Origin: Patescibacteria group bacterium
GTDB taxonomy: Bacteria; Patescibacteriota; UBA1384; DATEAH01
DNA length: 64,000 nucleotides
NCBI GenBank assembly: GCA_035288465.1
Contig: DATEAH010000006.1
Span: 27,770 to 91,769, forward strand
Direction: 5' to 3'
How positions within the stretch are numbered: the first letter of the stretch is position 1; each line of letters opens with the position of its first letter. Positions 5,823-64,000 of this stretch are shown piece after piece. The position numbers and the translations under genes are program-made. Under the pieces are notes generated by a model, which ran no database searches, had not been told where the DNA came from, and saw only the letters and a program-made list of their open reading frames with translations.

Positions 5823-6761
5823 TCATCCCATCAAACCCAAGACAAGCAATTCCAAAGCAAAATCTGGATCAATTTGGCCAGTTTTCATGGCAATTTCCGC
5901 CGACATTAATTTTTGATAAATCAGTTTCAGATTTGATAAAGAAAAATTTCTAATCTGTTGCAAACTTTTTTGAATAACAAAAGGGTGCAATCTGGTTTTT
6001 TCGCGAATTTGGGCTGATCCCAAACCAGATTCGGATAAGGCCTTTATAATAATCAAATTTCGAAACTGGTACACAATCATGGTATGAATATATAAAGCAT
6101 TTTCGCCGGCGACGAGTAAATTTTTTAAAATTTGCTGGCTTTTGGCTAAATTTTTCGCGGCTAACGAATCAATAAGCTCAAAAATGCTGGGTGAAAATTG
6201 CGGTTTGACCAAGTCACGAACATCTTCCACGTGAATTTCTTTCCTATCTTTATATTCTATAAGTTTGTCAATTTCTAAATCTAAACGACCCAAATCATTG
6301 CCAACAAAAAAAGTTAAGGTTTCGGCGGCCTCAAAATCAATTTTGCCACCTTTTTCTTCGACTCTTTTTTTAGCCCAAGTCAAAATCCCTTGGCTTGCGA
6401 GAGGCTCAAATTGCCAGACTTTGCCAATTTCAGTGACTTTTTTAAGCACTGGATTTTTTGGGCTAAGTTCTGATTCAACAAAAACCACTGTCACTTCGGC
6501 TGGAATTTTGACAATAATTTTGGCAATTTCTTTGGCATCAGTTGGGCTGGCTTTCTTAAGGAAATTTTTCACGATGATGAGTTTTTGGGCTGATAAAAAA
6601 TTAGTAACGATAAGTGAGTTTTTAAATTGACTCAGGCTCATATTTTCGTCAAATTTTTCAATATTAAACTCAGAACCGGTTTTTTCGACAAATTTTGCTT
6701 GAACCTGGTTCATTTTTTCTAAAACGCGAAAATTGTCCTTACCATAGATTAAAAAAATCAT
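5823..6761 (-). CDS. holA: DNA polymerase III delta subunit
   Basis: N-terminus MIFLIYGKDNF, a size of 312 aa and a position overlapping the polA start by 4 nt fit HolA. Confidence 0.6.
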   Translation of the reverse strand: MIFLIYGKDNFRVLEKMNQVQAKFVEKTGSEFNIEKFDENMSLSQFKNSLIVTNFLSAQKLIIVKNFLKKASPTDAKEIAKIIVKIPAEVTVVFVESELSPKNPVLKKVTEIGKVWQFEPLASQGILTWAKKRVEEKGGKIDFEAAETLTFFVGNDLGRLDLEIDKLIEYKDRKEIHVEDVRDLVKPQFSPSIFELIDSLAAKNLAKSQQILKNLLVAGENALYIHTMIVYQFRNLIIIKALSESGLGSAQIREKTRLHPFVIQKSLQQIRNFSLSNLKLIYQKLMSAEIAMKTGQIDPDFALELLVLGLMG

Positions 6762-50783: not shown

Positions 50784-51083
50784 TTGAATCCCGCACCGAG
50801 AATGTATTATATTTATATATTAAAAAGTCTAATAAATGGTAAATTATATAAAGGATATACTAGAGATATTAATAAAAGAATTTTAGGTTATAACCAAGGT
50901 AGGGTTAAATCAATAAAATCTGGGTTTCGGTGGAAATTGATTTATTATGAAGGATTTATAAATAAAACCGACGCATTGCGAGAAGAAATATTTTTAAAAT
51001 CAGATAAAGGAAAAGATAGACCTAAATATTTATTAAAAAATTCTACGGAGGAGTGCCAGAGCGGTTTAATGGGCCGGTCTTGA
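50784..51083 (+). CDS. GIY-YIG nuclease-family small protein (YhbQ/UPF0213-like)
   Basis: MYYIYILKSLINGKLYKGYTRDINKRILGYN is a GIY-YIG core. The likely start is the ATG at 50802. The stop lies 37 nt inside the downstream tRNA-Ser. Confidence 0.65.
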   Translation: MNPAPRMYYIYILKSLINGKLYKGYTRDINKRILGYNQGRVKSIKSGFRWKLIYYEGFINKTDALREEIFLKSDKGKDRPKYLLKNSTEECQSGLMGRS

Positions 51084-51133: not shown

Positions 51134-51143
51134 AATTTTTATT

Positions 51144-51171
51144 AAAAAAGCAGCTAAATAGCTGCTTTTTT
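51144..51171. terminator. Bidirectional intrinsic terminator between tRNA-Ser and the convergent radical SAM gene
   Basis: An A-run, stem agcagc/gctgct with loop taaata, then a T-run. Confidence 0.55.
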
Positions 51172-51195
51172 GAGTCTTAGTTTTTACTCAATATT

Positions 51196-52644
51196 TTATT
51201 TTTCAGCCCAGTCTTTGAAAAAACTAATACCCTGTTTTAAAAATGGCCAAAAATCTTTCGGATTTTTAACAAATTTTTTCATACTATGCAAAATATAGGT
51301 TGGCCTTAAGTAAAATTGTAAATAAGCTTTTTTGCGGAATTTCGCGAGATCTTCAACTGATAACTGCGGAGTCGAAATGATATTTTTTCCTTGTTCATAA
51401 TCCGCCCAGCTTTTAGCGGTGATCCAGCCTTTTTTAGCGGCTTCGTCGTGAAAGCGAGTCCCGGGATATGGAATAGCGGAATAAAATTGGACATAGTCTG
51501 GATTTATTTCCTTAACCAATTTCATGGTTTTTTTAATGGTTTGTTTGGTTTCGCCCGGCAAGCCAAAAATAATATAAGCGGCACTTTCAAGTTTGGCAGC
51601 CCTAGTCCATTTAAAAGCTTGCCTGATTTGCGCCAAAGTGATATTTTTGCCAACGCGGTTTAAAATCTTTTGAACACCTGATTCGACTCCATATGAGACA
51701 ACCTGGCAGCCGGTTTCTTTCATCGCTTTTAACATTTTAGGATTAATTCTGTCCACGCGCGAATTTGCCATCCAGCGAAATTTCAGCTTCCTTTTTTTAA
51801 TACCTTCACATAATCTAAAAACATAATTTCGGTCAAAAGTAAAAGAATCCGCCCAAAAAGTAATATCTTTAATTTTATAAACTTTGAGAATTTCTTCAAC
51901 TTCATCTAAGACATTTTTAACGCTCCTCATCCTAATTTTTGAGCCATAATATAGGCTGGCGGTGCAAAAACTACAATTATTTGGACAGCCGCGGGAGGTA
52001 ATGACTAAGGTATAGGGTCGGTTATAGACCGGCATTTTGTAGCGTCGATTTTTAATTAAGTCTCGAGCAGGAAAGGGTAAAAGATCTAAATTTTCGATAA
52101 AGGGCCGGTCCACATTGCTAATAAATGACGGGTTACTCTTAAAACTGAGCCCCTTAACCTTTTTCAAAGATTTTTTATCACGCAGGGAAAGCGCGAGCTC
52201 GAGCGAAGTCATTTCCGGTTCTCCTCTAATAATCGAATCCAGCGCAGTATCTTTTAGGGTTTTTAAAGGAAGGCTGGTGACATGAATGCCAATGGCGGTT
52301 AAGTGCGTCTTGGGCTGATTTTTTTTGACCTTGGCAATAAAAATTCGATCCCCATAATAGGTAACAGTGGCGAGATTTATAATAATTAAATTCGGTTGAA
52401 ATTTTTTAATCGCTCTAATTGCTTTTTTCGAGTCCAAATCTTCGGCCATTGAGTCTAAAACTTTAACCTCAATCCCATTTTCGCGCAAAAGGCCGGCAAT
52501 CGATGGCAGAGAAATCGGTACCATCAGATATTGAAAAGACGAAGCACGCTGTTCACATCGGCCTTCTCTAACATATTTTTCGTGATTTGGGCTAGGCGGA
52601 TTGACAATCATAACCTTCACATTATCCCCACTTTCAAAGATCAA
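51196..52644 (-). CDS. B12-binding radical SAM protein, paralog 1
   Basis: An N-terminal B12-binding-type domain, CxxxCxxC (RGCPNNCSFCTA) and IIFGLPGETKQT. It is paralogous to 54598..56037 over its full length. Confidence 0.8.
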   Translation of the reverse strand: MIFESGDNVKVMIVNPPSPNHEKYVREGRCEQRASSFQYLMVPISLPSIAGLLRENGIEVKVLDSMAEDLDSKKAIRAIKKFQPNLIIINLATVTYYGDRIFIAKVKKNQPKTHLTAIGIHVTSLPLKTLKDTALDSIIRGEPEMTSLELALSLRDKKSLKKVKGLSFKSNPSFISNVDRPFIENLDLLPFPARDLIKNRRYKMPVYNRPYTLVITSRGCPNNCSFCTASLYYGSKIRMRSVKNVLDEVEEILKVYKIKDITFWADSFTFDRNYVFRLCEGIKKRKLKFRWMANSRVDRINPKMLKAMKETGCQVVSYGVESGVQKILNRVGKNITLAQIRQAFKWTRAAKLESAAYIIFGLPGETKQTIKKTMKLVKEINPDYVQFYSAIPYPGTRFHDEAAKKGWITAKSWADYEQGKNIISTPQLSVEDLAKFRKKAYLQFYLRPTYILHSMKKFVKNPKDFWPFLKQGISFFKDWAEK

Positions 52645-52658
52645 ATCAATAAAATGAT

Positions 52659-53072
52659 TTAGATATGATTAAATTTATCATCTTTCGCCAGAAAAATAAA
52701 CCTTTTTACTAACCAAAAATTAGTGACCGCCGCAGCAAATGTGGCGAATATTTTAGCAAAAAGATACCATAAATGAAAAAACTGTACCAATGACGCCAGA
52801 ATTAATAAATTAATTGCTAAACCAACGCTATGAGAAATAATATATTTTATAAACTGCTGAAAATATTTTTTTTCAGAATTAGCAAAAGTCCAAAATTTAT
52901 TCAAGCTAAAACTAATCCAAACTATCACCACAATTGAAATAATCGCTGCCAGCAAATAATGAAGATGGACAAATTCAACTAAAATATAAAGAAAAATGAA
53001 ATCCAATAAAGTCGCCAAACCCCCGACCATAATGTATTTTAAAAATTGTTTTGACATAATCATTTTTACCAT
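52659..53072 (-). CDS. GtrA-family small membrane protein (polyprenol-P-sugar flippase-like)
   Basis: A 137 aa protein with 4 TM helices, YIMVGGLATLLDFIFLYIL at the start and KRFIFL at the end, typical of the GtrA family. Confidence 0.65.
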   Translation of the reverse strand: MVKMIMSKQFLKYIMVGGLATLLDFIFLYILVEFVHLHYLLAAIISIVVIVWISFSLNKFWTFANSEKKYFQQFIKYIISHSVGLAINLLILASLVQFFHLWYLFAKIFATFAAAVTNFWLVKRFIFLAKDDKFNHI

Positions 53073-53776
53073 TTATTCCTTTGCCGATAAGCACTTATTA
53101 AAATAGCCATAAAAAGAGCAAAAAGCACCACTATAAAATAATAAAATATAATTACAATTTGATTCAAAATCACCCCGATAAAAACAACAATCCAAATGGT
53201 GCCAGAACGATACGATTCGGAAAACAAGAAGGCGATTATTTTTAAAAATTTTGGAAGATTTTTTAGACTTTCCTTTTTAATATTTTCAACATCTTTATTA
53301 AATAAGAGCTGATATCTGGGTAGGGTTCTGCCAAACATTCTTTGCAAAAAAATTACCAAGGCTAAATAAAAAAAGATATGATCATTATGCACTTGCCGAA
53401 AGTTGGCCCAGGCAAGCGCGAAAAAAACCAAACTTTCTTTGATGCTGTCAAGAGAAGTATCAAGTAAGGCGCCAAAGTGGCTGATTTTTTTAAAGCCTCG
53501 GGCAAGCTGGCCGTCAACACAATCAAAAATATAAGAAATAATTAAAATACCCGCCCCCAAAATCCTTTCTGATAAATTCCCGTAAGCGATCAAGCCGATT
53601 CCGATTAGGCCGACCCCAAAACCTAAAAAATTAACAAAAGTTGGTGATAAATTGATGCTGGCAAAACCAGGAGTGATCACGCTGGCAATCGGACGATAAA
53701 AAACCCGTTCGAAAAATGGGTAAAAGGGCTTGTGCATAATTTTAGCATTAAATTTTGGTTTATGATTTTTTTTCAT
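53066..53776 (-). CDS. CDP-alcohol phosphatidyltransferase family protein
   Basis: Motif DCVDGQLARGFKKISHFGALLDTSLDSIKE matches D-G-x2-A-R-x8-G-x3-D-x3-D. Confidence 0.7.
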   Translation of the reverse strand: MKKNHKPKFNAKIMHKPFYPFFERVFYRPIASVITPGFASINLSPTFVNFLGFGVGLIGIGLIAYGNLSERILGAGILIISYIFDCVDGQLARGFKKISHFGALLDTSLDSIKESLVFFALAWANFRQVHNDHIFFYLALVIFLQRMFGRTLPRYQLLFNKDVENIKKESLKNLPKFLKIIAFLFSESYRSGTIWIVVFIGVILNQIVIIFYYFIVVLFALFMAILISAYRQRNKW

Positions 53777-54575
53777 TTAAGCTTTTTGGCTTTTGACAAA
53801 TTACCACAAATTCACGGGTTTTGGCAGTATTTTTAGAAAAATAAACATCTGATAATTTTATTTTGGCAGACTGATAAATTTTTTTCACATAAAGCCAAGA
53901 AAAAACCCTCAGATAGGTTCTGGTTGCCCAGATTTTGATGGTATGCGGTAAATTTGCATAAATAATTCTAATTAATCTTTTCGGGTTCCAGCGGGAATAA
54001 AGTAACAATTTTCGACCACGAACATATTGGCCTAAAATTTTTTGGACCTCAAAATCAGCGAGCATTTTTTTTAAATCTTCTAAATAAAATTCATAAAAAT
54101 GAAAAGGGTAAAAAGGTTTAAAAGTGCCAGGGGAATAAACCGCTTTATTTGGAGTGGAAAGAATCAGTAAGCCCCCAGGTTTTAGAACTCGGTAAATTTC
54201 GTCGATGGCCTTAGAGTAATTTTTAACATGCTCAATGGTTTCAAACATAGATACTAAATCAAAATAATTATTAGGAAAATCAAGATTGGTTAAGTCGGCT
54301 CTTTTAAAAATTAAATTTTTCCGAAGATATTTAGATTGGCAATACTGGATTGATTCGGCGACTATGTCAATTCCATAAACTTTTTTAGCGCCAGACTTAG
54401 CTAAAATATTGGCGCCGTAACCTGCTCCGCAACCAGCGTCTAAGATAATTTTATTTTGAGCATATTTGGTGGCCAATTGATAACGAGAAATGGCTAAACC
54501 ATAAATATCTTGCAAAAACTTTGCCTGGGGCATAATTGAGCCCTCGAGTCTGGGCATTAAATTGTCGGTGGGCAT
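53760..54575 (-). CDS. Class I SAM-dependent methyltransferase
   Basis: ILDAGCGAGYGANIL (motif I) and VLKPGGLLILSTPN. Confidence 0.75.
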   Translation of the reverse strand: MPTDNLMPRLEGSIMPQAKFLQDIYGLAISRYQLATKYAQNKIILDAGCGAGYGANILAKSGAKKVYGIDIVAESIQYCQSKYLRKNLIFKRADLTNLDFPNNYFDLVSMFETIEHVKNYSKAIDEIYRVLKPGGLLILSTPNKAVYSPGTFKPFYPFHFYEFYLEDLKKMLADFEVQKILGQYVRGRKLLLYSRWNPKRLIRIIYANLPHTIKIWATRTYLRVFSWLYVKKIYQSAKIKLSDVYFSKNTAKTREFVVICQKPKSLNEKKS

Positions 54576-54597
54576 AATTGTCCTTTCTGCGGGATTT

Positions 54598-56037
54598 TTA
54601 ACCCCAATTTATCAAAAAACTTGAACCTTTCTGAATAAGATTGAGCAAGTCTCGGAATGATTTAACTTTTTTTAATTGACGGGAGATAAATTTTTTGCGT
54701 AAATAAAAACCAACCATTGCTTTTTTTCGAGCCTTAGCTAAGTCTTTTTGAGACAACTCTGAAGTATTAATTATCGCTCGGTTTAGTTCGTACTGGTTCC
54801 AATCAGAAGCCTTGATCCACCCCCTTTTGACGGCTAACTTGCGAAACTCAGTGCCGGGGAATGGAATGGCACAATAAAATTGGACATAATCTGGATCGAT
54901 TTTGCGAATAAATTTAATGGTTTGATTTATGGTTTTTTTTGTTTCACCGGGAAGACCAAAAATAACATGGGCTAAAGAATCTATATTCGCTTTTCGGGTT
55001 AGCTTAAAAGCTCTTTCAATCTGTTTTAAGGTGGTGCCCTTTTTGACATTATTTAATATTTTTTGAACGCCTGACTCAACTCCATATGCCACGCCCATAC
55101 AACCAGCCTTTTTCATGGCTTTGAGCATTTCCAGATCAACCGTATTGACTCGGGCATTGCACATCCAGTTAAATTTTATTTTTTTATCAATAATTTGTTG
55201 GCAAAGTTCAAGGACAAATTTTTTATCAAAAGTAAAAGTATCAGCCCACATGGTAATATCTTTGATCTGGTCGTGATTGACAATTTGCTCAATTTCCTCA
55301 ATCACTTTTTCGACTCGGCGGACTCTAAATTTATTCCCATAATATTGTTTGGCAGTACAAAAAGTACATTTATTGGGGCATCCACGAGCCGTAATTAGCA
55401 GTGTATAGGGTCGGTTGTAAACTGGCATAAAATAGCGGTCGTTTTTAAGGAGGTGGCGGGCGGCAAAAGGTAAAGAGTCTAAATCTTTAAAATGCGGCCT
55501 CGCCGGATTATTAATAATTTGCCCATCTTTTTTATAAGATAAACCGCGAATATTATCGAGTAATTTTTTATTTTTTAGGGCCGTGGCGAGTTTTAAAACC
55601 GTTATTTCCGGTTCGCCCCGTACCACTGAATCTAATCGGGTTTCTCGAAGCACTTTTTTAGGCAGGGTCGTGACATGGACGCCAATAGCGACCAGATGAG
55701 CATTGGGCAGTTTTTTCTTCAAGCGCATCACAAATTCTGCATCTGATTTATAAGTTAAGGTTGAAAAATTTATAATCACCAAATCAGGCTTAAATCTTGC
55801 CGAGGCCGAGATCGCACCGGAAAAATCAAAATCTTCGACCATAAAATCATAAATTTTAACTTCAAAATTATTCTGTAAAAGTAAACCGGCAGTCATAGGT
55901 AAAGAAATCGGCACCATCACATATTGAAATGAGGATAGGCGCTGCTCACACCTGCCTTCTCTAATTACTTTTGGGCCATTTAATGGGGGCGGATTGATAA
56001 GTAAAATTTTCAAGATCTTCTCCATAATATTTGCCAA
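54598..56037 (-). CDS. B12-binding radical SAM protein, paralog 2
   Basis: RGCPNKCTFCTA and VIFGLPGETKKT. The N-terminus LINPPPLNGPKVIREGRCEQRLSSFQYVMVPISLP parallels paralog 1. Confidence 0.8.
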   Translation of the reverse strand: MANIMEKILKILLINPPPLNGPKVIREGRCEQRLSSFQYVMVPISLPMTAGLLLQNNFEVKIYDFMVEDFDFSGAISASARFKPDLVIINFSTLTYKSDAEFVMRLKKKLPNAHLVAIGVHVTTLPKKVLRETRLDSVVRGEPEITVLKLATALKNKKLLDNIRGLSYKKDGQIINNPARPHFKDLDSLPFAARHLLKNDRYFMPVYNRPYTLLITARGCPNKCTFCTAKQYYGNKFRVRRVEKVIEEIEQIVNHDQIKDITMWADTFTFDKKFVLELCQQIIDKKIKFNWMCNARVNTVDLEMLKAMKKAGCMGVAYGVESGVQKILNNVKKGTTLKQIERAFKLTRKANIDSLAHVIFGLPGETKKTINQTIKFIRKIDPDYVQFYCAIPFPGTEFRKLAVKRGWIKASDWNQYELNRAIINTSELSQKDLAKARKKAMVGFYLRKKFISRQLKKVKSFRDLLNLIQKGSSFLINWG

Positions 56038-56699
56038 CGTTTTTTAAATAAAAACAATAAATTTGGGATGCCATCGCGCATACGACGGAGTTTGGAATTA
56101 CCAATGCGATCTCGATAATTGATATGATACTCTCCGTATTTAATTTTAGGGTGTAATAAAGCTTCCATTTTGATTTCTTCAGAAAAAGACATTTTATTGG
56201 AAAAGGGGTGAATTTTTTTTAAAATTGAGCGTCGAAATACCCACATGCCGGTTTGGGAATCTTCGACCGGTTTTAGGGTTAGTGAATTCATCGTGAGGGT
56301 TAATATTAGATTACCTAAACGGTTTGGCCAAGGCATGGCGGATTTATATTTTAAGGGAAAACGATTTCCAGCTACAAAATCAAGATTATTTTTGAGCAAA
56401 TAATCAATCATTCGCCCAATTTCTTGCAAAGGATATGTGCAGTCAGCATCACTGGTAATAATAATGTTGCCCTTGGCTGACTTGATGCCTTTTTGGCAAG
56501 CGGCGCCATAACCTTGTTTTTTTTCGCGAATTACGGTCGCGCCGAGTTTGCGGGCAATGGGGGCGGTTTTATCAAAGGAATTATTATCAACCACCATAAT
56601 TTCATCAACCCATTTTGGGATGCTTTTGATAGTAAGGGGAATCGCTTTTTCCTCATTATAGCATGGAATCACCACAGAAATTTTATATTTTTTATACAT
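56010..56699 (-). CDS. Family 2 glycosyltransferase (polyprenol-phosphate sugar synthase / GtrB-like)
   Basis: ISVVIPCYNEEKAI, a DxD-type TSDAD and a size of 229 aa. Confidence 0.7.
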   Translation of the reverse strand: MYKKYKISVVIPCYNEEKAIPLTIKSIPKWVDEIMVVDNNSFDKTAPIARKLGATVIREKKQGYGAACQKGIKSAKGNIIITSDADCTYPLQEIGRMIDYLLKNNLDFVAGNRFPLKYKSAMPWPNRLGNLILTLTMNSLTLKPVEDSQTGMWVFRRSILKKIHPFSNKMSFSEEIKMEALLHPKIKYGEYHINYRDRIGNSKLRRMRDGIPNLLFLFKKRWQILWRRS

Positions 56700-59322
56700 T
56701 TTCTTTGCCCCCCTTTTTGGAGAGATAAAAAATAGTCCCTAATAAAATCAGCGTTACAATCGAAATAATCTTGGCAAAGTTGTGATTGGGAAGATTTTCG
56801 TATTTTAGTTTAACATTGTTATTGCCGGCGGGCAAATTGAGGGCCATCATACTATCTATATTATAAATTTTTAGAGGCTGACCATTTAAATAAGCTTTCC
56901 AGTGAGGTGAAATCGTATATGAAACAAGGACTGGGGTATTTTTTTCGGCCGTATAATTAAATTCTAAAATACCAGCCTCGGGATCTAAATTCTGGGAAGT
57001 AAATTCAATCTCCGAAATAATTTCAGAGGCAGGATTTAGACTGCCGGTCGTGATACCAGTGAGAAATTTTTGCTCTTTTTGATCGTGAGTTAAGTAGGCA
57101 TGATAAAATAAATTTCCGCCAATAAACCAGACCTTGTGGCCCTCAACATTTTTATAGCCAATTAAATTATATAAACCGCTGTCTTCATTGGTTTGATTTT
57201 TCCAGCGCGCCAGGGTACTATCCAAATTTAAATATTGAGGAAAGCGCCATTCTTTAAGCGGTGTATATTTAGCTTTCCCCAAATCAGTACCGCCAAAATC
57301 TTTGAGTGAAGGAATTTCCAAGGTTTTAGGGAGGGTATCTGCCGGAATATTTTCAGCTAATTCTAATTGCATGGTGGTAGTAGTTTTTTCGAGTGAACTT
57401 TGGACACCCAAAAAAGTTGGTTCGCCCTCAAGTTTTGAATTTTCGATATTGAGCATATCAATCGTGACATTGCCACCGTTTTTCGCATAATCTTGAATTA
57501 ATTTTTCCGCTTTCTGTTTGTTGTGGTATCCAAAACCATATAAAACTAAATTATCAAAATTGCTTAAAAATTCTAAATCATAATCATCAATATAATTTGA
57601 GCCAGCTAAATTTGAATGTGATTGAAAGGCAGCATAGTTATAACCATGCTTGCCAACGACGAGCGTTTTTTGATTTATGGGAATAAGACCATTTGACGGT
57701 TTGTCTTGGTAATATAAGGCGGTAACTGATTCGCCCGGAGCCTCAAAAACCGGTTGATAACCATTTTCTTTGAGCTTGGCCATAAAATTAGGTTTAAGCT
57801 CGGGATTGTTTTGAAAAAAGTTTTCAATATACGATGTCATCACAAAATAACGATCATTAAACAGCGCCATTTTGGAGAAGAAATAATCATAATAATCATT
57901 GTTAAAAGCGTCATTCATCCAAGCAATTTCTTTGTTTAAGCGGGTGATTGAAAAATAATGTCCTTCAGAGTAATACTTGTGATTAACGCTGGGAATTACC
58001 CAGTCAATTTTCCCAATGTTTTTAACGGTGAAAACTCGTCCCTGATTATCAATTTTCTCAAATGCTTGATTGAGTTTGGGGAAAATATTTTCAAATGGTT
58101 GTACCCAAATTCGATTAATAAAAGGATGTTGGTAGTGGAAATTTAAAATGCTAAGACCGGCAACCAAAGGGATAGCAAGAATCGAAATAGAAATTCTTAG
58201 CCAGGGTTTTAGTTTGGGAAATTCGAAAAAGGTAGTTCCCCAATAAAGCATCACCACGCAAATCCAGGTTAAAGCCGCATAAGGAAAGACCCAAGTTAAT
58301 AATTTATAGATTGGCAAACTCCAAGGGGTAGTGAGATAAAAAGCAAATAGGACCGAAGCCAGAAGCGCCCAATCTTTCGGAGTGCGCCGGCGTAAAAATA
58401 CAAATAAACCTGAAATTATGACCAAAGCGCCGCCGCTTAAAACGATTAATTCTAGAAATGACCCTGCCCCAATTTCAGAGTGGAAGGTAACGGTGGTAAT
58501 GGCCGGATAAGTATAATTTGCAGGTTCAGCAAGGAAAGGGATCGCCCACCAGGCAATTAATCCACAAGCAGTCAGAAAAGCCATCCCCCATATTTCTAAT
58601 TTTCTAAAAGTAATTTCGGAATCGAACAAGACGCGTGCTACCACATAAATAATTAAAAAAGCGAGTGAGTTGATGGCAGTAATTGGATGAGCCACAATCA
58701 TGGAGGCGATAATTATGGTCAAAATCAGGAAATTTCGAAAGCGGAACTTCTGTTCTAAGATTAGATCTGTGTAATAGAAAGCTAGGGGCAGGAGGATAAA
58801 AGGGGTGACGCGAGTGACTGAAGTTCGGGCGAGGTAAAAAATTCCCGGTACAAAAGGATAAATTATACCACCGATAATCGCCGCCCTAATATTATTTTTT
58901 TTATATAGGAAGAAAAACATTGACAGACCGGCTGATAATAAAAGTAGCAAAGAAAAAATTCGGTTAGTATAATAAATATCTTTGACTAAGTGATAGATGA
59001 TGGCGATCGGAATATAGTCTAAAAATGGGGTATGGTGTAAAGTTTCAATACCATTATACCAATAAGGATTAATGACCGGAAAACGATGATTAATTTTATA
59101 ATATTCATAAACATATTTTGGAATAAACATATGAGCGGCTTCGTCGCCACCTCGCATCATTCCCTCGGCAAAGAAGTTGGGAGAAAAAAGATAAAAAATC
59201 ACTCCCAAAACAAGCGCAACTGCCCCAATTAATACTATCCAGTGCCAAAAAGTTTTTTTAAACATTATATTTCTCCATCTATTTTTGTTCTTTAAGATTA
59301 TAATCCTGATTAATTCCGTCAA
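56692..59322 (-). CDS. Large polytopic GT-C-like membrane protein (YfhO/ArnT-like)
   Basis: An 876 aa protein with more than 12 TM helices in the N-terminal 450 aa, then a large extracytoplasmic domain and a C-terminal TM. The call rests on topology and context. Confidence 0.4.
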   Translation of the reverse strand: MTELIRIIILKNKNRWRNIMFKKTFWHWIVLIGAVALVLGVIFYLFSPNFFAEGMMRGGDEAAHMFIPKYVYEYYKINHRFPVINPYWYNGIETLHHTPFLDYIPIAIIYHLVKDIYYTNRIFSLLLLLSAGLSMFFFLYKKNNIRAAIIGGIIYPFVPGIFYLARTSVTRVTPFILLPLAFYYTDLILEQKFRFRNFLILTIIIASMIVAHPITAINSLAFLIIYVVARVLFDSEITFRKLEIWGMAFLTACGLIAWWAIPFLAEPANYTYPAITTVTFHSEIGAGSFLELIVLSGGALVIISGLFVFLRRRTPKDWALLASVLFAFYLTTPWSLPIYKLLTWVFPYAALTWICVVMLYWGTTFFEFPKLKPWLRISISILAIPLVAGLSILNFHYQHPFINRIWVQPFENIFPKLNQAFEKIDNQGRVFTVKNIGKIDWVIPSVNHKYYSEGHYFSITRLNKEIAWMNDAFNNDYYDYFFSKMALFNDRYFVMTSYIENFFQNNPELKPNFMAKLKENGYQPVFEAPGESVTALYYQDKPSNGLIPINQKTLVVGKHGYNYAAFQSHSNLAGSNYIDDYDLEFLSNFDNLVLYGFGYHNKQKAEKLIQDYAKNGGNVTIDMLNIENSKLEGEPTFLGVQSSLEKTTTTMQLELAENIPADTLPKTLEIPSLKDFGGTDLGKAKYTPLKEWRFPQYLNLDSTLARWKNQTNEDSGLYNLIGYKNVEGHKVWFIGGNLFYHAYLTHDQKEQKFLTGITTGSLNPASEIISEIEFTSQNLDPEAGILEFNYTAEKNTPVLVSYTISPHWKAYLNGQPLKIYNIDSMMALNLPAGNNNVKLKYENLPNHNFAKIISIVTLILLGTIFYLSKKGGKENV

Positions 59323-61006
59323 GCCTTAAGGCTTCTTTTTTGAAGTTAATGGCATTATTTTTATTATTATTTTGTGCGGTTGGGTTTCCAAAATTCGCTT
59401 CGGCGCCGAAACTATCTAATTCAGGGATTTTTTCCTCATATACGATATCAGAAGATGGTTTTTGGCCAGTCACAAATTGAAGAAGATTGCTGCCAAGGGC
59501 GGAAATCTTTTGTTGGCCGGTACTAATGGTGCCTTGATAATCTTTTATGGACTTAACCGGATTAACTGGTGTGGTCCAAGCCTGAGGTTCTTTTAAGACT
59601 TCCAAATATCCCGCAAAGCGGAAGAAGAAAGTAATGATTCTGAACAAGGGCATGACAAGATTATAGTGATAGCTTTTTTTAATTTTTTTCCGAGTTTCTG
59701 AATCAGCCACCACATAACAATATAAAGAATTGAAACAATCCATCACAATATAAAAAATATACATTAACAAAATGGCTTTAATGATTAATGTGGTGGAATA
59801 ACCGAAAAGGAAGAAAAGCGGCAGTAAAAACATCCAAATAATACGAGGGAAACCAAAGGTGTGGTCGATCATCAACTGCAAGCCTAACCAGAAATTACGC
59901 CAAAAACCCTTGGTTAAGTTGGCATACCAATCAAGGTGAGTACCAACCACTTCAATTTGGCCGCGATGCCAGCGCGCGCGTTGGGCATAAAATCGTTCGT
60001 AGGAAATAACTGGCTTTAAAAAGGCTTTGGCTTCTTCGGCAAAACCTAAGCGGACATTTTGCCGTTGCAGATCAAGGGTTAAATCCGTATCTTCGGAAAC
60101 GGTTCGGCTACTATAAAGGTTAGTTTTCATTAAAACCTCGCGCCTAAAAGCGGAAAAAGCCCCGGAAAAAGTATACATTGAGCCGGTAATATCTTGAAAT
60201 TGTCGTCCCAGCCTAAATGAGGTTAAGTATTCTAAAAATTGGCACTTGGCTAAAACTTTTTCTTTAAGGGTTAATTTTCTGGAGACATAATGGCCGTTTT
60301 CATCTAAAATATATTGACCTTGTGCATTCTTGCGGTAAATTAAATTCCAATCAATTTCAATATTGCCGGTGGCAGCGCCATATTTGGGATTTTCGACAAA
60401 TTTTGCCACCATATTATAAATCGCGTCTGGCGCCAAAAAGGAACGACAATCGATATTGATAATAATTCCGCCCTGAGACAATTTAATGCCGGCGTTTAAA
60501 GCCCTGGCTTTGCCTTTTTCGTATCTGACAACCAACCTAAGTAAGCCGCCAAAACCATCTGCCTGATATGTTTTGCCATTTACTTTGATCTTGCCGTTAA
60601 GATGATGGTTGAGGTTTTTAAAAGTGACGGCTTGATGTAATTTATTATGGCCGTTTTTATTCAACCAAATCTCGCGCATATGGTCTTTGACAATTTCCGA
60701 GGTTTGGTCGGTCGAGCCATTATCAACCACAATAATTTCCATTTTTTCTTGGGGATAAGTTTGAATTTTAAGGTAATTGAGGCATTCGTTGATGTTGTCT
60801 TCTTCGTTATAAGTTGGAATAATAATTGAGACCTTTGGCAGAGTCGCGGGATCAATAGGACGAATGATTCGTTTTGCTCTTTTGGTAATAATGTGAATCA
60901 TATAAATTAAAGCTAAAAATCCATCAAAAATGATCGGAATGATGATCCAGACTCCCCAAAAGATGGCCAAAATAAAGAGATTATTATTCATTCGTTTTGT
61001 CCTCAA
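59279..61006 (-). CDS. Processive family 2 glycosyltransferase (cellulose/chitin/PNAG synthase-like) with TM segments
   Basis: VSIIIPTYNEEDNI, D,D,D motifs and QRARWHRGQ (QxxRW), with N- and C-terminal TM helices. Confidence 0.75.
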   Translation of the reverse strand: MRTKRMNNNLFILAIFWGVWIIIPIIFDGFLALIYMIHIITKRAKRIIRPIDPATLPKVSIIIPTYNEEDNINECLNYLKIQTYPQEKMEIIVVDNGSTDQTSEIVKDHMREIWLNKNGHNKLHQAVTFKNLNHHLNGKIKVNGKTYQADGFGGLLRLVVRYEKGKARALNAGIKLSQGGIIINIDCRSFLAPDAIYNMVAKFVENPKYGAATGNIEIDWNLIYRKNAQGQYILDENGHYVSRKLTLKEKVLAKCQFLEYLTSFRLGRQFQDITGSMYTFSGAFSAFRREVLMKTNLYSSRTVSEDTDLTLDLQRQNVRLGFAEEAKAFLKPVISYERFYAQRARWHRGQIEVVGTHLDWYANLTKGFWRNFWLGLQLMIDHTFGFPRIIWMFLLPLFFLFGYSTTLIIKAILLMYIFYIVMDCFNSLYCYVVADSETRKKIKKSYHYNLVMPLFRIITFFFRFAGYLEVLKEPQAWTTPVNPVKSIKDYQGTISTGQQKISALGSNLLQFVTGQKPSSDIVYEEKIPELDSFGAEANFGNPTAQNNNKNNAINFKKEALRLDGINQDYNLKEQK

Positions 61007-62162
61007 TTATATTGATGGTGTAATTTGCCCGATGGCCAGAAAGATTTTTATATCTGATGGTGATAATATCGTCTGGTTGAACCTTAAGCGGTTTTTCAAA
61101 AACATTTTGATTATTTATCAATTCGCTTTCTGAACTCGTTGAAAGAGAAGTGAATTTTTGCAGAATGCCATTTTTGTATAACTCAATCCGAATCGGCTGG
61201 TCGCCGTGGATAATTTGCAGATTGATTTTGGTAGTTGATCCGGCCATAAAGCCGAAATCAATGGCTTTCCAAGCGCGCAATCTTTCGATGACAAATTGAT
61301 CTAATATAATAGGTGCTTTTTCACCTAAAATATCCCCTTGATTCTGGTTTGATGGCAGTGGCGTTGGAGTTTCAATTCCAGTTTCATCTTTATATATGAT
61401 AGGTCTATTGACGCGGGCAACTGGGGCAAAGGCTTTTTGCCAATCTTTTGAGGCAATAAAGCTATAAACGCCGGCTAAAACAACCACGACAATGACTGCT
61501 ATTTGAGTATACGCATGTCGAAGCTGTAAAGATCGGCCTGGCTGGGCGGTTTTATTGATGGGAACATCATTTTCAATACTATCACCAACAGATTTAACTG
61601 TGGTTTTGGTGATAATATACCAATAGAGAAGCAGTTCGCAGATAAAGAAGAAAATACGAGCCACGCCAGCATGAGCTAAGAAAATATAGTTTGATCCAAA
61701 CCGGTAAGCGATGATGACGATAATCATCAAGCGAAGAATATTAATCACATAAGTGACGACGAGGGCAAAAACAGATCTAAGGATTTTTTGTTTCCAGTCA
61801 AAAAGTGGATAAAAGATAATTAAGGCAAAAGCAATTGATGATTCCAAAATTGCCGAACATTCAATGCCCAACTTGAGAATGTCGGATCCTCCCACTGGCC
61901 GGATTAGCTGGAATCGGCCTGAAGAAAGCAGTTCAGTTTGGAATTTAAAGAGGTTTTTGGAAATTAGTTCCACATGGAAACTTGCCATATTAACTAAGGT
62001 TTGGTCAAAGCCGAAATATTCAGCTAACAGCACGATCATGATCGTCAAGCCAAAAGCGGCGATAAGGTAATAGAAAAGCCACTGACGATGCTGTCTAAAC
62101 AACAGCACTAAAGTCAGCCAGATGGGGAAGATGATGATTGTGGCTAACAATCGACTTTCCAT
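60984..62162 (-). CDS. Exosortase/archaeosortase-family protein with a roughly 190 aa C-terminal extracytoplasmic domain
   Basis: A multi-TM N-terminal half with a Cys motif GIECSAILES and NILRLMIIVIIAYR, resembling exosortase catalytic Cys/Arg/Asn motifs. Confidence 0.4.
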   Translation of the reverse strand: MESRLLATIIIFPIWLTLVLLFRQHRQWLFYYLIAAFGLTIMIVLLAEYFGFDQTLVNMASFHVELISKNLFKFQTELLSSGRFQLIRPVGGSDILKLGIECSAILESSIAFALIIFYPLFDWKQKILRSVFALVVTYVINILRLMIIVIIAYRFGSNYIFLAHAGVARIFFFICELLLYWYIITKTTVKSVGDSIENDVPINKTAQPGRSLQLRHAYTQIAVIVVVVLAGVYSFIASKDWQKAFAPVARVNRPIIYKDETGIETPTPLPSNQNQGDILGEKAPIILDQFVIERLRAWKAIDFGFMAGSTTKINLQIIHGDQPIRIELYKNGILQKFTSLSTSSESELINNQNVFEKPLKVQPDDIITIRYKNLSGHRANYTINIIEDKTNE

Positions 62163-63935
62163 TTATTTCCTTTTTTCTCGAGATGTAATCCCATCAATCG
62201 ACCTTCGGGGTAAATTTTGATGGGTTTTGTCTGGGGCAAGCGGGGCAGAATTTTTAGGCGGAATCAGGGTATTTTTTGGATCAGATTTTTTCTCTTTTTT
62301 AAGTTTAATTACACCCATTTTTACTCCTAGAAAAACGGCTGAACCAACCAAGATTAGGAATAATATTTCAGTTAAAGTCGGGATTGAAGTGAAAGTCACC
62401 GATTTTTCATAATAGATGTTATAGGCATAACTCGTGCTATCCCACCAGCGTGTCCATATCGTATAAGTCGTGTTTGAGGGGAAATTAGTATTAACACAGG
62501 TCCAGTTGTCATTGGCGCTGCCGCTGGCGGCCGTATCAACATTGGTATTTTGATGGGTATAATTGCCTGAAGCCCAAGACGCAGAACCAGCGCAGCCATT
62601 GGTAATGTAGGTTTCGCCGGCGTCAGGTTGGCCGTCCGCGTCGCCATCTATAAAGATGACCGCATCAATATATTTATCGTTTAAAGCGGTGCTGGCATGA
62701 TAATTGTTAACCGTGGTGGAGACAGAAATGGTTTCGCCCAGAGTCGGATAGCTTCCGGCGTCAGTGGATAAAGTCGTGGTGACGGTTTGCTTTTTAGCGA
62801 TGACAACATTGGTGTAAGGAGGAAGATTAGTGTTGGTGCCGTCGGCTAAAGTGAGCGTTGTCGGGTGTGCGTGGCCGGGAATAGTGCCCGAGCCAGAGCC
62901 GCCGACATCACTGGCGCTGGTAGAAGAAGTAGCGTTTATGTCGATATGCGAGTGTTGGTTGGCGCCACCGGTGCTACCATATGAGCCGGTAGGGCTTAAT
63001 AATTTCTGATAAAATGGTCCGCCTGAATCCGAGAGCCGCGTCCAGCCGGCAACAGAAAAACCAACTGAACTATCAGTATCGTCGAACATTGCAATCATCC
63101 CGTTGGGAATGGCGGTGTTGGCGGTGGCTTTGCCCAGGATAATGGTGATGTACGGCGGTTGAGTACCGGGCGCACTAGAAGTGCCCGAGGCGGTATGAGT
63201 GTGATTAGCTAAAGAAGAGCGGTTGGCGGTTGATCCTGATGCGGCAATGGTGCCGGCCACACCGGTTAAAGTTGCCGAAACTGAATGGCTGGTGCCTTGA
63301 TGAGCATCGCTCCCCCCAACGCCACCAGCGCTGGAGTTGCCTCGAATATAACGAAAGCCACCAGTAAAATAACCGGAAACATCCGACCAATTGGCACCGG
63401 GCACCGCGGCGTCAAAAATGGCAATTGCACCCGAAGGAATTGCCGAGTTGCCATTGGGGATGCCAGTGTTTTTAATGACGCAGAGATTTCTATAGGTGGG
63501 CAAATTGCTGATATTGCTGACACTATCAACTGTCACCGGATGGGTATGAGTATCGCTGTTATGGGTACTGCCCGCCGCGGTCTTTCGGTCAGTAGCGGTG
63601 GCGGCGGTACTGCTTCCTGTTCCGCTGTGGGTATGGGTTAAGGCACCGCCGGCGTTTCTGGCATAGCTTGAATTGCCTCTGGGGAAAAGACCGCCATTGG
63701 TTGCATCATAAAATTCTTCACCATCAGCATCAGAAACAACTGACCAGCCAGTTGGTGGAGAGGTACAATCGTCATTCCAGAAAAGCAGCATGTGGTCTGA
63801 GGCATCAACCGCTTTGGCAGGCTTTACAAAAGTGAAAAGATTTAAAATATTGGCAAAAATTGTTATGACCAAAAACACGGCAATTATTTTAGTAATTCTG
63901 ATGGCTCGAATTTTATTGGTAATATTTTTAGCCAT
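62163..63935 (-). CDS. Thr/Ser/Gly-rich cell-surface protein with signal peptide and an IPTL-type C-terminal TM anchor
   Basis: A signal peptide, a long T/S/G/A-rich region with HTH/HxH repeats, then FTSIPTLTEILFLILVGSAVFLGVKMGVIKLKKEKK (IPTL + TM + basic cluster), followed by a roughly 40 aa tail. Confidence 0.45.
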   Translation of the reverse strand: MAKNITNKIRAIRITKIIAVFLVITIFANILNLFTFVKPAKAVDASDHMLLFWNDDCTSPPTGWSVVSDADGEEFYDATNGGLFPRGNSSYARNAGGALTHTHSGTGSSTAATATDRKTAAGSTHNSDTHTHPVTVDSVSNISNLPTYRNLCVIKNTGIPNGNSAIPSGAIAIFDAAVPGANWSDVSGYFTGGFRYIRGNSSAGGVGGSDAHQGTSHSVSATLTGVAGTIAASGSTANRSSLANHTHTASGTSSAPGTQPPYITIILGKATANTAIPNGMIAMFDDTDSSVGFSVAGWTRLSDSGGPFYQKLLSPTGSYGSTGGANQHSHIDINATSSTSASDVGGSGSGTIPGHAHPTTLTLADGTNTNLPPYTNVVIAKKQTVTTTLSTDAGSYPTLGETISVSTTVNNYHASTALNDKYIDAVIFIDGDADGQPDAGETYITNGCAGSASWASGNYTHQNTNVDTAASGSANDNWTCVNTNFPSNTTYTIWTRWWDSTSYAYNIYYEKSVTFTSIPTLTEILFLILVGSAVFLGVKMGVIKLKKEKKSDPKNTLIPPKNSAPLAPDKTHQNLPRRSIDGITSREKRK

Positions 63936-64000
63936 ATCTAAACCTCGCTCTTTCTGAGAAAGTCTTCAAAATCTTTTTCTCTAACACGATAAAACTTACC

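Follow-up and report, generated by a model that had tools for sequence, protein, structure and literature searches.

What a tightly packed set of genes for a surface protein, a putative sorting enzyme and a series of glycan- and lipid-modifying enzymes may do for a bacterium of the candidate phyla radiation (CPR, Patescibacteria) is the question raised by positions 51196-63935, minus strand, of a 64,000-nucleotide (nt) stretch of contig DATEAH010000006.1 from a Patescibacteria group bacterium, hereafter the window. CPR bacteria are thought to live attached to host cells. One of the genes encodes a 590-amino-acid (aa) protein with a hydrophobic and basic region near its C-terminus, and the next a 392-aa membrane protein of the exosortase type. 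It is considered probable that the two form a dedicated sortase-substrate pair, in which the substrate would be cleaved at the motif S[VI]PxL[GT] and its passenger attached to an envelope acceptor, within a glycan-biosynthesis operon of an XrtG-like system. The locus would represent a compact and clearly delimited sorting system with a new signal, a new sortase clade sister to XrtG and a conserved glycan module, common to CPR bacteria, to archaeal metagenome-assembled genomes (MAGs) under the labels Halobacteria and Methanomicrobia, and to at least one MAG of the Coriobacteriia. The two genes and the relevant parts of the enzyme lie as follows.

62163-63935, minus strand: substrate, 590 aa, an open reading frame (ORF) without Pfam or NCBIfam match
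60984-62162, minus strand: XrtG-like exosortase-family protein, 392 aa (TIGR04178, 47.7 bits)
61572-62162, minus strand: membrane core of the sortase, aa 1-197
61857-61859, minus strand: Cys102
61731-61733, minus strand: Arg144
61671-61673, minus strand: His164
61002-61298, minus strand: extracytoplasmic β-sandwich of the sortase, aa 289-387

The 392-aa protein had been called exosortase/archaeosortase-like, with Cys/Arg motifs, in a first-pass annotation made from the letters of the window, and sequence comparison indicates that it is a true member of this family. It passes the exosortase/archaeosortase signature TIGR04178 over aa 101-184 (47.7 bits, cutoff 23), on which its homologs score 46-57 bits. 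Among 20 homologs, R144 and H164 are invariant and C102 is at least 90% conserved, and all three residues are also found in a natural substrate-sortase fusion described below (L036). The catalytic residues of the archaeosortase ArtA were reportedly defined by Abdul Halim et al. in 2018. The positive-inside rule and an AlphaFold2 model would place Cys102, Arg144 and His164 at the outer face of the membrane. The best specific model is that of XrtG (TIGR03110), which covers aa 9-190 only, whereas archaeosortase models score 17-27 bits on the clade, and XrtA and EpsH models 18-32 bits on its members. The TIGR03110 scores are bimodal around the cutoff of 102.75 bits, eight other members of the clade scoring 78-91 bits and five Firmicutes-type representatives 168-214 bits. 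When 1.84 billion representative proteins were searched exhaustively with HMMER, 202 relatives were returned in all; of the best 150 of these, 111 are at least 150 aa long and, sorted by best BLAST match to reference sortases, 63 are nearest to the present clade and 48 to Firmicutes XrtG. Together, the bimodal scores and the BLAST split put the locus in a clade that, by these comparisons, is an unmodelled sister of Firmicutes XrtG, no Pfam or NCBIfam model covering either the sortase clade or its signal. Its hosts comprise CPR bacteria and Euryarchaeota MAGs (those with Halobacteria and Methanomicrobia labels) and, among other bacteria, at least one Coriobacteriia MAG; a scan of reference genomes gave 5 loci with narrow peptide patterns, which is not a measure of prevalence. 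Full-text literature searches found nothing on exosortases in Patescibacteria, and a single relevant paper in which XrtG is named.

In CPR sortases, the core is extended by about 200 residues forming a transmembrane (TM) helix, a disordered linker and a β-sandwich (AlphaFold2 predicted local distance difference test (pLDDT) 70-83), the extra helix of the window protein spanning aa 214-237. The β-sandwich gave weak Foldseek matches to jelly-rolls of carbohydrate-binding module (CBM) families CBM6/35/36 (E 4e-4 to 6e-3), and no solved structure matched the core. A tandem duplicate of the C-terminal β-sandwich occurs in the CPR sortases P0016, P0019, P0026 and P0028 (515-522 aa), and the P0042 sortase (535 aa) ends instead in its own TM helix and basic cluster.

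The presumed substrate was described in the first-pass annotation as a Thr/Ser/Gly-rich protein ending in IPTL, a TM segment and a basic cluster followed by an extra 40-aa tail, and this layout is borne out: Thr, Ser and Gly make up 37.9% of the mature passenger, and the C-terminus runs I518-P-T-L-T-E, a 15-residue hydrophobic stretch ILFLILVGSAVFLGV, a basic cluster from K539 to KLKKEKK550, and a 40-aa extension.

62286-62384, minus strand: tripartite sorting signal, aa 518-550 (IPTLTE, helix ILFLILVGSAVFLGV, basic cluster K539...KLKKEKK)
62166-62285, minus strand: cytoplasmic extension, 40 aa, with the distal motif RRSIDGIT (aa 577-584, nt 62184-62207)

In 9 CPR tails the P, T, L and E are invariant and are followed by a hydrophobic helix with conserved Gly residues and by a K/R cluster; as a consensus, S-[VI]-P-x-L-[GT] precedes a TM helix and basic residues, the motif being S-[VI]-P-x-L-G in the wider clade. 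The same tail is found on at least four unrelated passenger architectures and, conversely, the passenger type of the window protein has other C-termini in other lineages (P0082-P0089, P0085). Judged by the features of sorting signals listed by Haft (bioRxiv 10.1101/2023.06.07.544157), the tail behaves as a sorting signal, and one that lies outside every curated model. The distance from the motif to the end of the protein is 30-38 residues in archaeal tails and in L038, L039 and L012t. Most CPR tails keep the distal motif [RK]S[IVN]DG[ILV]; it is missing in L012t, in tails of the PTLGQ sub-type and in every archaeal and actinobacterial tail. By its literal IPTL tetrapeptide and its three-part layout, the window tail could also be a member of the proteobacterial IPTL-CTERM system (TIGR04174), to which it had been likened, or of the classical PEP-CTERM/XrtA system. 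However, TIGR04174 matched neither the full 590-aa protein nor any of four isolated tails even at E<=10, the same four tails found no match among the NCBIfam sorting-signal models at that threshold, and the sortases score as low on the XrtA and EpsH models as given above; moreover, the consensus is S[VI]PxL[GT] and not IPTL, and the system is one of one or two substrates in monoderm-like CPR bacteria and archaea. Such membership is refuted by the model searches and the clade consensus, and hardly any credence is left for it. Firmicu-CTERM and other curated signals were likewise rejected as the identity of the tail, there being no NCBIfam match.

The link between tail and sortase was examined from the side of the tail. 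A profile search with the tail alignment in a word-indexed database of 5.8 billion proteins gave 2 matches, its prefilter being unsuited to a short hydrophobic profile, and tail loci were gathered instead by scanning metagenome contigs for DNA patterns. When only the tail pattern was used, a sortase homolog was found in 18/18 loci, directly downstream in 16/18, with 1-2 tail-bearing genes per locus. The two archaeal MAGs (Halobacteria- and Methanomicrobia-labelled) encode sortases of about 205 aa, 39% identical to the window protein, and processive synthases of glycosyltransferase family 2 (GT2) that are 40-43% identical; the gene preceding the archaeal sortases ends in ...HSIPTLD or ...YYIPSLG, each followed by a TM helix and RK. 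In two more stand-alone members (L038 and L039), the upstream proteins end in ...FYSVPILG, a TM helix and R, and in ...DYSVPSLG, a TM helix and RQW, respectively. From these comparisons, tail and sortase appear to form a dedicated system in which the enzyme gene is neighboured by those of one or two substrates. The first-pass annotation had proposed to look for further proteins with IPTL-type tails in the genome; the 64-kb window contains one only, and related loci have one or two each, beside the sortase. Such a count is the wrong test here, because a dedicated system has its one or two substrates next to the enzyme. Two substrate genes, on either side of the sortase gene or close to it, occur in some CPR loci, namely L015 (5428-7233 and 9085-10860), L029, L030 and L033; their passengers are unrelated, one of them with weak MG2/pilin-Ig-like matches.

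The pairing is further illustrated by natural fusions, in which a passenger, a pre-tail β-sandwich and the motif [FY]xS[VI]P[TVA]LG run straight into TM1 of the sortase. At least nine representatives belong to the clade (P0105, P0106, P0120, P0124, P0127, P0129, P0136, P0138 and P0210), with further examples at L036 8001-11009 and L037 1405-3492; they recur on contigs that are independent of one another and reach 518 kb, and one cluster holds a protein from the Coriobacteriia MAG. At the junction in L036, a non-CPR locus of 68% GC, the sequence reads QFYSVPALG-AALVAFIAALMAPVLWAL-RRRRR-WLTYYILASFG, so that TM1 of the sortase and the RRRRR loop replace the helix and basic cluster of the signal. 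Firmicutes-type fusions (P0201, P0191, P0213 and P0234) are built likewise, with an AGAS or GSSSG motif. Read-through artefacts were rejected as their origin: neither the TM helix nor the basic cluster of the substrate itself is present, the motif abuts TM1 of the sortase, and the contigs are independent. The fusions argue strongly for an enzyme-substrate relationship, for which they are unusually direct genomic evidence, and suggest that the fusion proteins are self-processing enzymes. They would also imply an N-out topology and hence a motif at the outer face, which would establish the orientation in the membrane for the XrtG-type family as a whole.

The same fusions can be read in another way, since they hold passenger and sortase in one polypeptide: the tail might be a permanent membrane anchor with a working cytoplasmic portion, and the sortase homolog a scaffold or chaperone of a polysaccharide-secretion complex that performs no cleavage. 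The distal [RK]S[IV]DG[IL] that follows the basic cluster in most CPR tails, together with a similar motif at the end of the synthase, suggests that the tail has a cytoplasmic job of its own. Nevertheless, the Cys/Arg/His triad is conserved throughout the clade, fusions included, the most conserved part of the tail is the extracellular motif at the membrane boundary, and an extension is altogether missing from archaeal and actinobacterial tails and from some of the CPR tails. A precedent mentioned through reference 12 in PMC7157517 is that of ArtA, where a tripartite signal is processed though not C-terminal. A permanent anchor is accordingly judged decidedly unlikely, and cleavage by the sortase is retained as the preferred reading.

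The ten tight or overlapping genes that had been delineated at 51196-63935 were all present as ORFs at those coordinates, with junctions that overlap by 8-44 nt, abut directly (in one case) or leave gaps of at most 22 nt; a metagenome gene caller chose later starts for four of them, the processive GT2 (60991), the PTPS-related protein (59265) and the two B12-binding radical S-adenosylmethionine (SAM) proteins (56025 and 52611). The operon comprises eleven genes when the HTH_17 regulator gene upstream of the window ORFs is counted. Nucleotides 63936-64000 of the window, translated, give the C-terminus of this gene, which lies at 6409-6741 of the source contig (L001), 2 nt upstream of the 590-aa gene; it encodes 110 aa with tandem HTH_17 domains of the excisionase type (Pfam HTH_17, 93.9 bits). 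The exosortase-like and surface-protein genes had been correctly picked out but placed at the end of the operon, when in fact they stand at its 5' start. A bidirectional terminator between the last operon gene and a convergent GIY-YIG gene closes its 3' end. Besides the two genes already given, the features are the following.

63938-64000, minus strand: HTH_17 regulator gene, 3' end (last 20 codons and stop), first gene of the operon, its remainder past the window edge
59279-61006, minus strand: processive membrane GT2 synthase, 575 aa (570 aa from 60991; TIGR03111, 303 bits)
56692-59322, minus strand: PTPS_related polytopic membrane protein, 876 aa (857 aa from 59265; PF10131, 114 bits)
56010-56699, minus strand: small GT2, 229 aa (Pfam Glycos_transf_2, 105 bits)
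54598-56037, minus strand: B12-binding radical SAM paralog 2, 479 aa (Pfam B12-binding and Radical_SAM)
53760-54575, minus strand: class I SAM-dependent methyltransferase, 271 aa (Methyltransf_11, 93 bits)
53066-53776, minus strand: cytidine diphosphate (CDP)-alcohol phosphatidyltransferase, 236 aa (PF01066, 55.6 bits)
52659-53072, minus strand: GtrA-family small membrane protein, 137 aa (PF04138, 90.7 bits)
51196-52644, minus strand: B12-binding radical SAM paralog 1, 482 aa (HpnJ, 260 bits, cutoff 578)
51142-51173, strand not assigned: bidirectional intrinsic-terminator hairpin, 14-bp stem with A/T tracts on both sides

Two members of the glycan module accompany the sortase almost without fail. 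The processive GT2, recognised as such from its QxxRW motif (QRARW at aa 342, 59969-59983), has as best model TIGR03111, the 'XrtG-associated glycosyltransferase' (303 bits), followed by PgaC/IcaA at 135 bits; it is 40-43% identical to its archaeal and actinobacterial partners and 28% to Firmicutes TIGR03111 proteins, and it is found with the sortase in every locus that extends far enough, whether CPR, archaeal, actinobacterial-type or Firmicutes. The PTPS-related protein is present in nearly all such loci, L038 and L011 being without it. For this 876-aa protein a YfhO/glycosyltransferase-C (GT-C)-like nature had been proposed, of which the YfhO part falls, as the protein matches PF10131 (PTPS_related) and no NCBIfam model. 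PF10131 is presumably placed in the GT-C clan of Pfam, an acidic loop GGDEAAH is found at aa 58-64 (59131-59151), the G-x-D of this first loop is kept in 14 homologs, and one ortholog shows a weak PMT_2 match; a GT-C-type extracytoplasmic glycosyltransferase is the probable identity. Its Firmicutes counterpart bears the annotation 'TIGR03766 family XrtG-associated glycosyltransferase' or '6-pyruvoyl-tetrahydropterin synthase-related'.

The remaining enzymes matched the Pfam models expected from their first description as a small GT2, a methyltransferase, a CDP-alcohol phosphatidyltransferase and a GtrA protein. The small GT2 resembles polyprenyl-phosphate hexose synthases of the DPM1/GtrB/AglJ type, its best NCBIfam models being dolichyl-phosphate hexose transferase (120.7 bits), AglJ (105.5 bits) and PpgS (76.9 bits), all below cutoff, and has counterparts in L014 and L036. 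The GtrA-family protein, a putative flippase for polyprenyl-phosphate-linked sugars, passes PF04138 and is kept in most CPR loci, where it follows together with an ortholog of the 482-aa radical SAM protein. Methyltransferase orthologs 55-60% identical occur in six further CPR loci (L007, L008, L009, L012, L014 and L020). In the L036 locus, the fusion is accompanied by a GT2, a PTPS_related protein, a B12-binding radical SAM protein and a small GT2 that are 42%, 32%, 47% and 29% identical, respectively, to those of the window. The simplest reading of the module is a classical three-component route of extracytoplasmic glycosylation that would consist of a polyprenyl-phosphate-sugar synthase, the GtrA flippase and the GT-C transferase, and would run beside the β-glycan-extruding synthase. 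The wider region appears to be an envelope-glycan neighbourhood, since a Polysacc_synt flippase, a nucleotidyltransferase and an NAD-dependent epimerase/dehydratase are encoded upstream of the operon, beyond the window (L001 1-3950).

The two B12-binding radical SAM proteins are indeed paralogs, 55% identical to each other, with B12-binding and Radical_SAM domains and a CxxxCxxC motif in both (CPNKCTFC at aa 220 of paralog 2, CPNNCSFC at aa 220 of paralog 1). Paralog 1 is the copy kept across loci, with orthologs 65-76% identical in CPR bacteria and 47% in L036. For both, HpnJ is the best NCBIfam model, at 279 bits for paralog 2 and 260 bits for paralog 1, and AprD4 the best match of solved structure (6fd2, E 2e-32 for paralog 1). 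HpnJ, the radical SAM enzyme of hopanoid cyclitol-ether synthesis, and AprD4, an aminoglycoside diol dehydratase, carry out radical rearrangements on amino-sugar moieties, not methylation. Methylation, which the first-pass annotation had suggested for the pair, is not favoured because the nearest relatives are sugar-rearranging enzymes and not methylases. HpnJ proper (TIGR03471) differs from the present enzymes, which score less than half its cutoff of 577.6 bits and have no hpn/hopanoid genes near them in the window.

The CDP-alcohol phosphatidyltransferase brings in a further possibility, modelled on archaeosortase A, in which the passenger would be amide-linked to the head group of a membrane lipid and this enzyme, perhaps with the radical SAM and methyltransferase proteins, would make the acceptor lipid. 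In methanogens, artA adjoins a gene for PssA, a CDP-alcohol-transferase-type protein, and in Haloferax PssA and PssD are required for ArtA-dependent cleavage and lipid anchoring (PMC7157517). The enzyme of the window has an intact catalytic site (motif DGQLARGFKKISHFGALLDTSLD at aa 88; the DGx2ARx8Gx3Dx3D motif is perfect), the gene is also found in L007 and L014, and in L014 it is followed by an NTP_transf_3 gene whose product could make the CDP-alcohol. It is absent, however, from L008, L009, L012, L013, L020, L026, L036 and the archaeal loci, whereas the processive GT2 and the GT-C-like protein stand with the sortase in nearly all loci that can be judged; furthermore, its best NCBIfam models, all below cutoff, are the archaetidylinositol-phosphate and phosphatidylinositol-phosphate synthases, and no amine acceptor would come from inositol-phosphate-type enzymes. 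A lipid anchor of this kind is therefore possible but unlikely. A lipid acceptor is favoured by the ArtA/PssA precedent (PMC7157517) and by the transferase gene in this operon; a glycan acceptor is favoured by the near-invariant partnership with GT2 and GT-C-like proteins and by the CBM-like domain of the sortase.

Under the preferred reading of a dedicated pair, we infer cleavage and transfer, the identities of acceptor and glycan, and the chemistry of the radical SAM enzymes in the following way. The 590-aa protein would be exported by its N-terminal signal peptide and retained by its C-terminal helix, with S-I-P-T-L-T-E at the outer membrane face, where the 392-aa enzyme, its Cys102, Arg144 and His164 near the outer leaflet, would recognise the motif, cleave it and transfer the passenger to an acceptor, most probably a glycan or lipid-linked glycan made by the co-encoded enzymes. 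The processive GT2 would polymerise and extrude a β-linked polysaccharide, and the small GT2 would form a polyprenyl-phosphate sugar that the radical SAM protein(s) and methyltransferase may modify and GtrA may flip, for use outside the membrane by the PTPS-related GT-C-like protein. The CPR-specific extracellular β-sandwich of the sortase may bind glycan. As the system is small (4-6 genes), its reconstitution is feasible, which makes both the acceptor of an exosortase and the wiring to a polysaccharide synthase testable.

Several points weigh against this reading. The 392-aa protein stays under the curated XrtG cutoff (80.5 vs 102.75 bits on TIGR03110) and the processive GT2 under that of TIGR03111 (303 vs 364 bits). 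The CDP-alcohol phosphatidyltransferase, the second radical SAM protein and the small GT2 vary among loci, being found together in the window and L014 and partly in L007, so that they are only loosely connected with sorting. Beyond the basic cluster, another 30-65 residues follow in the window protein and in most CPR members; a signal destined only for removal would not typically carry such an extension with its conserved distal motif. Tail-bearing genes were counted at the loci, distant ones in whole genomes lying outside the scan. Finally, no XrtG-type protein is known from experiment to cleave a substrate, processing being extrapolated from ArtA and XrtA.

The linkage of a sorting enzyme and its substrate to an exopolysaccharide-type locus had been said to mirror PEP-CTERM/exosortase systems; the pairing holds, on the strength of the 18/18 loci, the archaea and the fusions, but the nearest system is XrtG/Firmicu-CTERM, and the architecture is clearly of this known kind, with several unusual additions. 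The XrtG/Firmicu-CTERM system of Firmicutes was reportedly described by Haft et al. in 2012. In the PGAP-annotated Lactococcus lactis plasmid pBV60 and in E. eligens, the order is Firmicu-CTERM protein, XrtG (190-199 aa), TIGR03111 glycosyltransferase, a QueD-like gene and a TIGR03766/PTPS-related glycosyltransferase, and a 'complete XrtG system' in L. plantarum has been given as a Firmicu-CTERM protein, XrtG and two XrtG-associated glycosyltransferases (2026, PMC12854382). The window locus shares the core order of substrate, sortase core of about 190 aa, processive GT2 and PTPS-related membrane glycosyltransferase; XrtG and the XrtG-associated glycosyltransferase are its best-scoring specific models, and both branches are dedicated systems of one or two substrates and include fusions. 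It differs in sequence (the sortases share 28-30% identity, the GT2 proteins 28% and the PTPS-related proteins 22%), with scores under the curated cutoffs, and in its signal, as the Firmicu-CTERM motif G-[GA]-S-x-G (GGSTGG, AGASSGA), followed by a TM helix and a Lys-rich end, is unrelated to S[VI]PxL[GT]/IPTL. XrtG loci contain a small QueD-like (6-carboxytetrahydropterin synthase) gene, which is missing here, whereas the B12-binding radical SAM protein, GtrA, the small GT2 and the methyltransferase are added, as are, in CPR bacteria, the TM helix and β-sandwich of the sortase, the HTH_17 regulator and cytoplasmic DG[ILV] motifs. The hosts also differ, being CPR bacteria, Euryarchaeota MAGs and a Coriobacteriia MAG among other bacteria rather than Firmicutes. 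The annotation of proteins now called 'hypothetical' would gain from two new hidden Markov models, covering the sortase clade and the signal, respectively.

Two other systems show partial likeness. The archaeosortase A/PGF-CTERM system of Haloferax volcanii shares the enzyme superfamily, the Cys/Arg/His logic, a tripartite signal, glycosylated surface substrates and, in some genomes, a link to a CDP-alcohol phosphatidyltransferase gene (PMC7157517), but it has many substrates dispersed over the genome, a PGF motif and no adjoining processive GT2 and GT-C-like genes. With glycosylation of the GtrA/GtrB/GtrC type, the window locus has in common a DPM1/GtrB-like small GT2, GtrA and an acidic-loop polytopic GT-C-like protein in one operon. 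That type consists of a polyprenyl-phosphate-sugar synthase, a flippase and a GT-C transferase; here, by contrast, the last component is a PTPS_related member, one or two radical SAM genes and a methyltransferase gene intervene, and the module is subordinate to a sortase system.

CPR loci stand apart in two further respects. An HTH_17 gene lies directly upstream of the substrate gene in 8/8 CPR loci examined, whereas it is lacking in the archaeal loci, in L036 and L038 and in those of Firmicutes, where a different regulator or no regulator is found; in L015 each of the two substrate genes has its own HTH_17 gene. Directly upstream of the lactococcal XrtG locus (L034 2956-4641, L. lactis pBV60), GGDEF and EAL proteins are encoded, and upstream of that in L038 (712-3232) a HisKA/LytTR two-component pair. 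Secondly, the C-terminal cytoplasmic tail of the processive GT2 ends in LRLDGIN (aa 560-566, nt 59309-59329), and in most CPR loci the C-terminus of this enzyme carries an island [KR][KR]x[IMF]DG[ILV][YF] similar to the motif of the substrate tail. The shared form [KR]xxDG[ILV] was present in the last 35 residues of 22/186 ORFs from 14 CPR loci, 21 of these 22 being substrates or GT2 proteins, against an expectation of 0.56 ± 0.73 for shuffled tails; as the sequences within each class are related, the independent observation is the presence in both classes. It was also seen in L007, L008, L009, L012, L015, L020, L027, L028 and L032, and in CPR loci only, which are likewise the only ones with an HTH_17 neighbour. 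Substrate tail and GT2 could, as a hypothesis, dock through [KR]xxDG[ILV] on a common cytoplasmic partner. In a wider and quite speculative scheme, which we would not expect to hold in full, the CPR branch would couple sorting, glycan synthesis and regulation through this motif, with the HTH_17 protein as candidate docking partner; the unprocessed substrate or the TM-tail stub would feed back on expression or on the synthase, and the CBM-guided sortase would join the HxH-repeat adhesin to the nascent polysaccharide. If true, organisms that live attached to other cells would possess a protein-to-glycan sortase that has a signalling remnant built in.

The substrate itself consists, in order, of an N-terminal signal (aa 1-42, ...KPAKA|VD), three HxH...PPY repeats (aa ~45-382), immunoglobulin (Ig)-like β-sandwiches (aa 384-517), the sorting signal and the cytoplasmic extension. 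N-terminal signals were recognised by inspection only in 8/8 CPR substrates, with a basic n-region, a hydrophobic stretch and an A-x-A-like site, and are alike even between unrelated passengers. Each of the three repeats contains two pairs of invariant His and closes with PxY or PPY; over an alignment of 26 sequences this adds up to 12 paired His residues that are invariant or nearly so, and to three PxY/PPY motifs. The AlphaFold2 model (pLDDT 74.7) shows the last strand of the Ig-like sandwiches running into the sorting motif, and the end of this pre-tail region, ...NFPxxxTYxxWxxW...F[TY]S[VI]P, is kept even in distant fusions; it is probably part of what the sortase recognises. The whole protein had no match in Pfam or NCBIfam, its Foldseek matches were confined to the β-sandwich part, and the HxH region gave no Pfam match even at E<=5 and no match in the PDB by sequence or by Foldseek. 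That the passenger is a metal-binding adhesin would be a guess. Descent of the repeats from phage tail-collar proteins was considered and is unsupported, with no Pfam, PHROG, PDB or Foldseek match in that region; the sole PHROG match of the protein (E 0.046) falls on the sorting-signal helix. The substrate gene (62163-63935) has a G+C content of 48.3%, against a window value of 38% and 36-39% in the remaining genes of the operon, which may be compositional, the protein being rich in Gly, Ala, Thr and Ser, or may reflect a separate origin.

An identical sortase protein is encoded on 23 metagenomic contigs, the longest of 98 kb, and the organism labels of the sortase homologs include Patescibacteria and Berkelbacteria. 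The cassette is found in differing genomic contexts across CPR genomes, and a tRNA-Ser(gct) gene lies just past the right edge of the window, about 380 nt upstream of the HTH_17 gene (L001 5940-6031). The vicinity of this tRNA gene to an excisionase-type HTH_17 gene, together with the varied contexts, hints at horizontal mobility; no integrase was seen. Small GIY-YIG genes flank the operon on both sides (window 50784-51083 and L001 5619-5912), and were rejected as island-delimiting repeats, their proteins being 36% identical and no common DNA repeat being present. Small genes for a four-helix-bundle '23S rRNA intervening sequence protein' (PF05635) recur beside the cassette, at L007 ~300-850, L009 3436-3801, L008 6582-6959, L013 7133-7510 and L015 3468-3968, and in L007 and L009 the gene is inserted between those of the substrate and the sortase.

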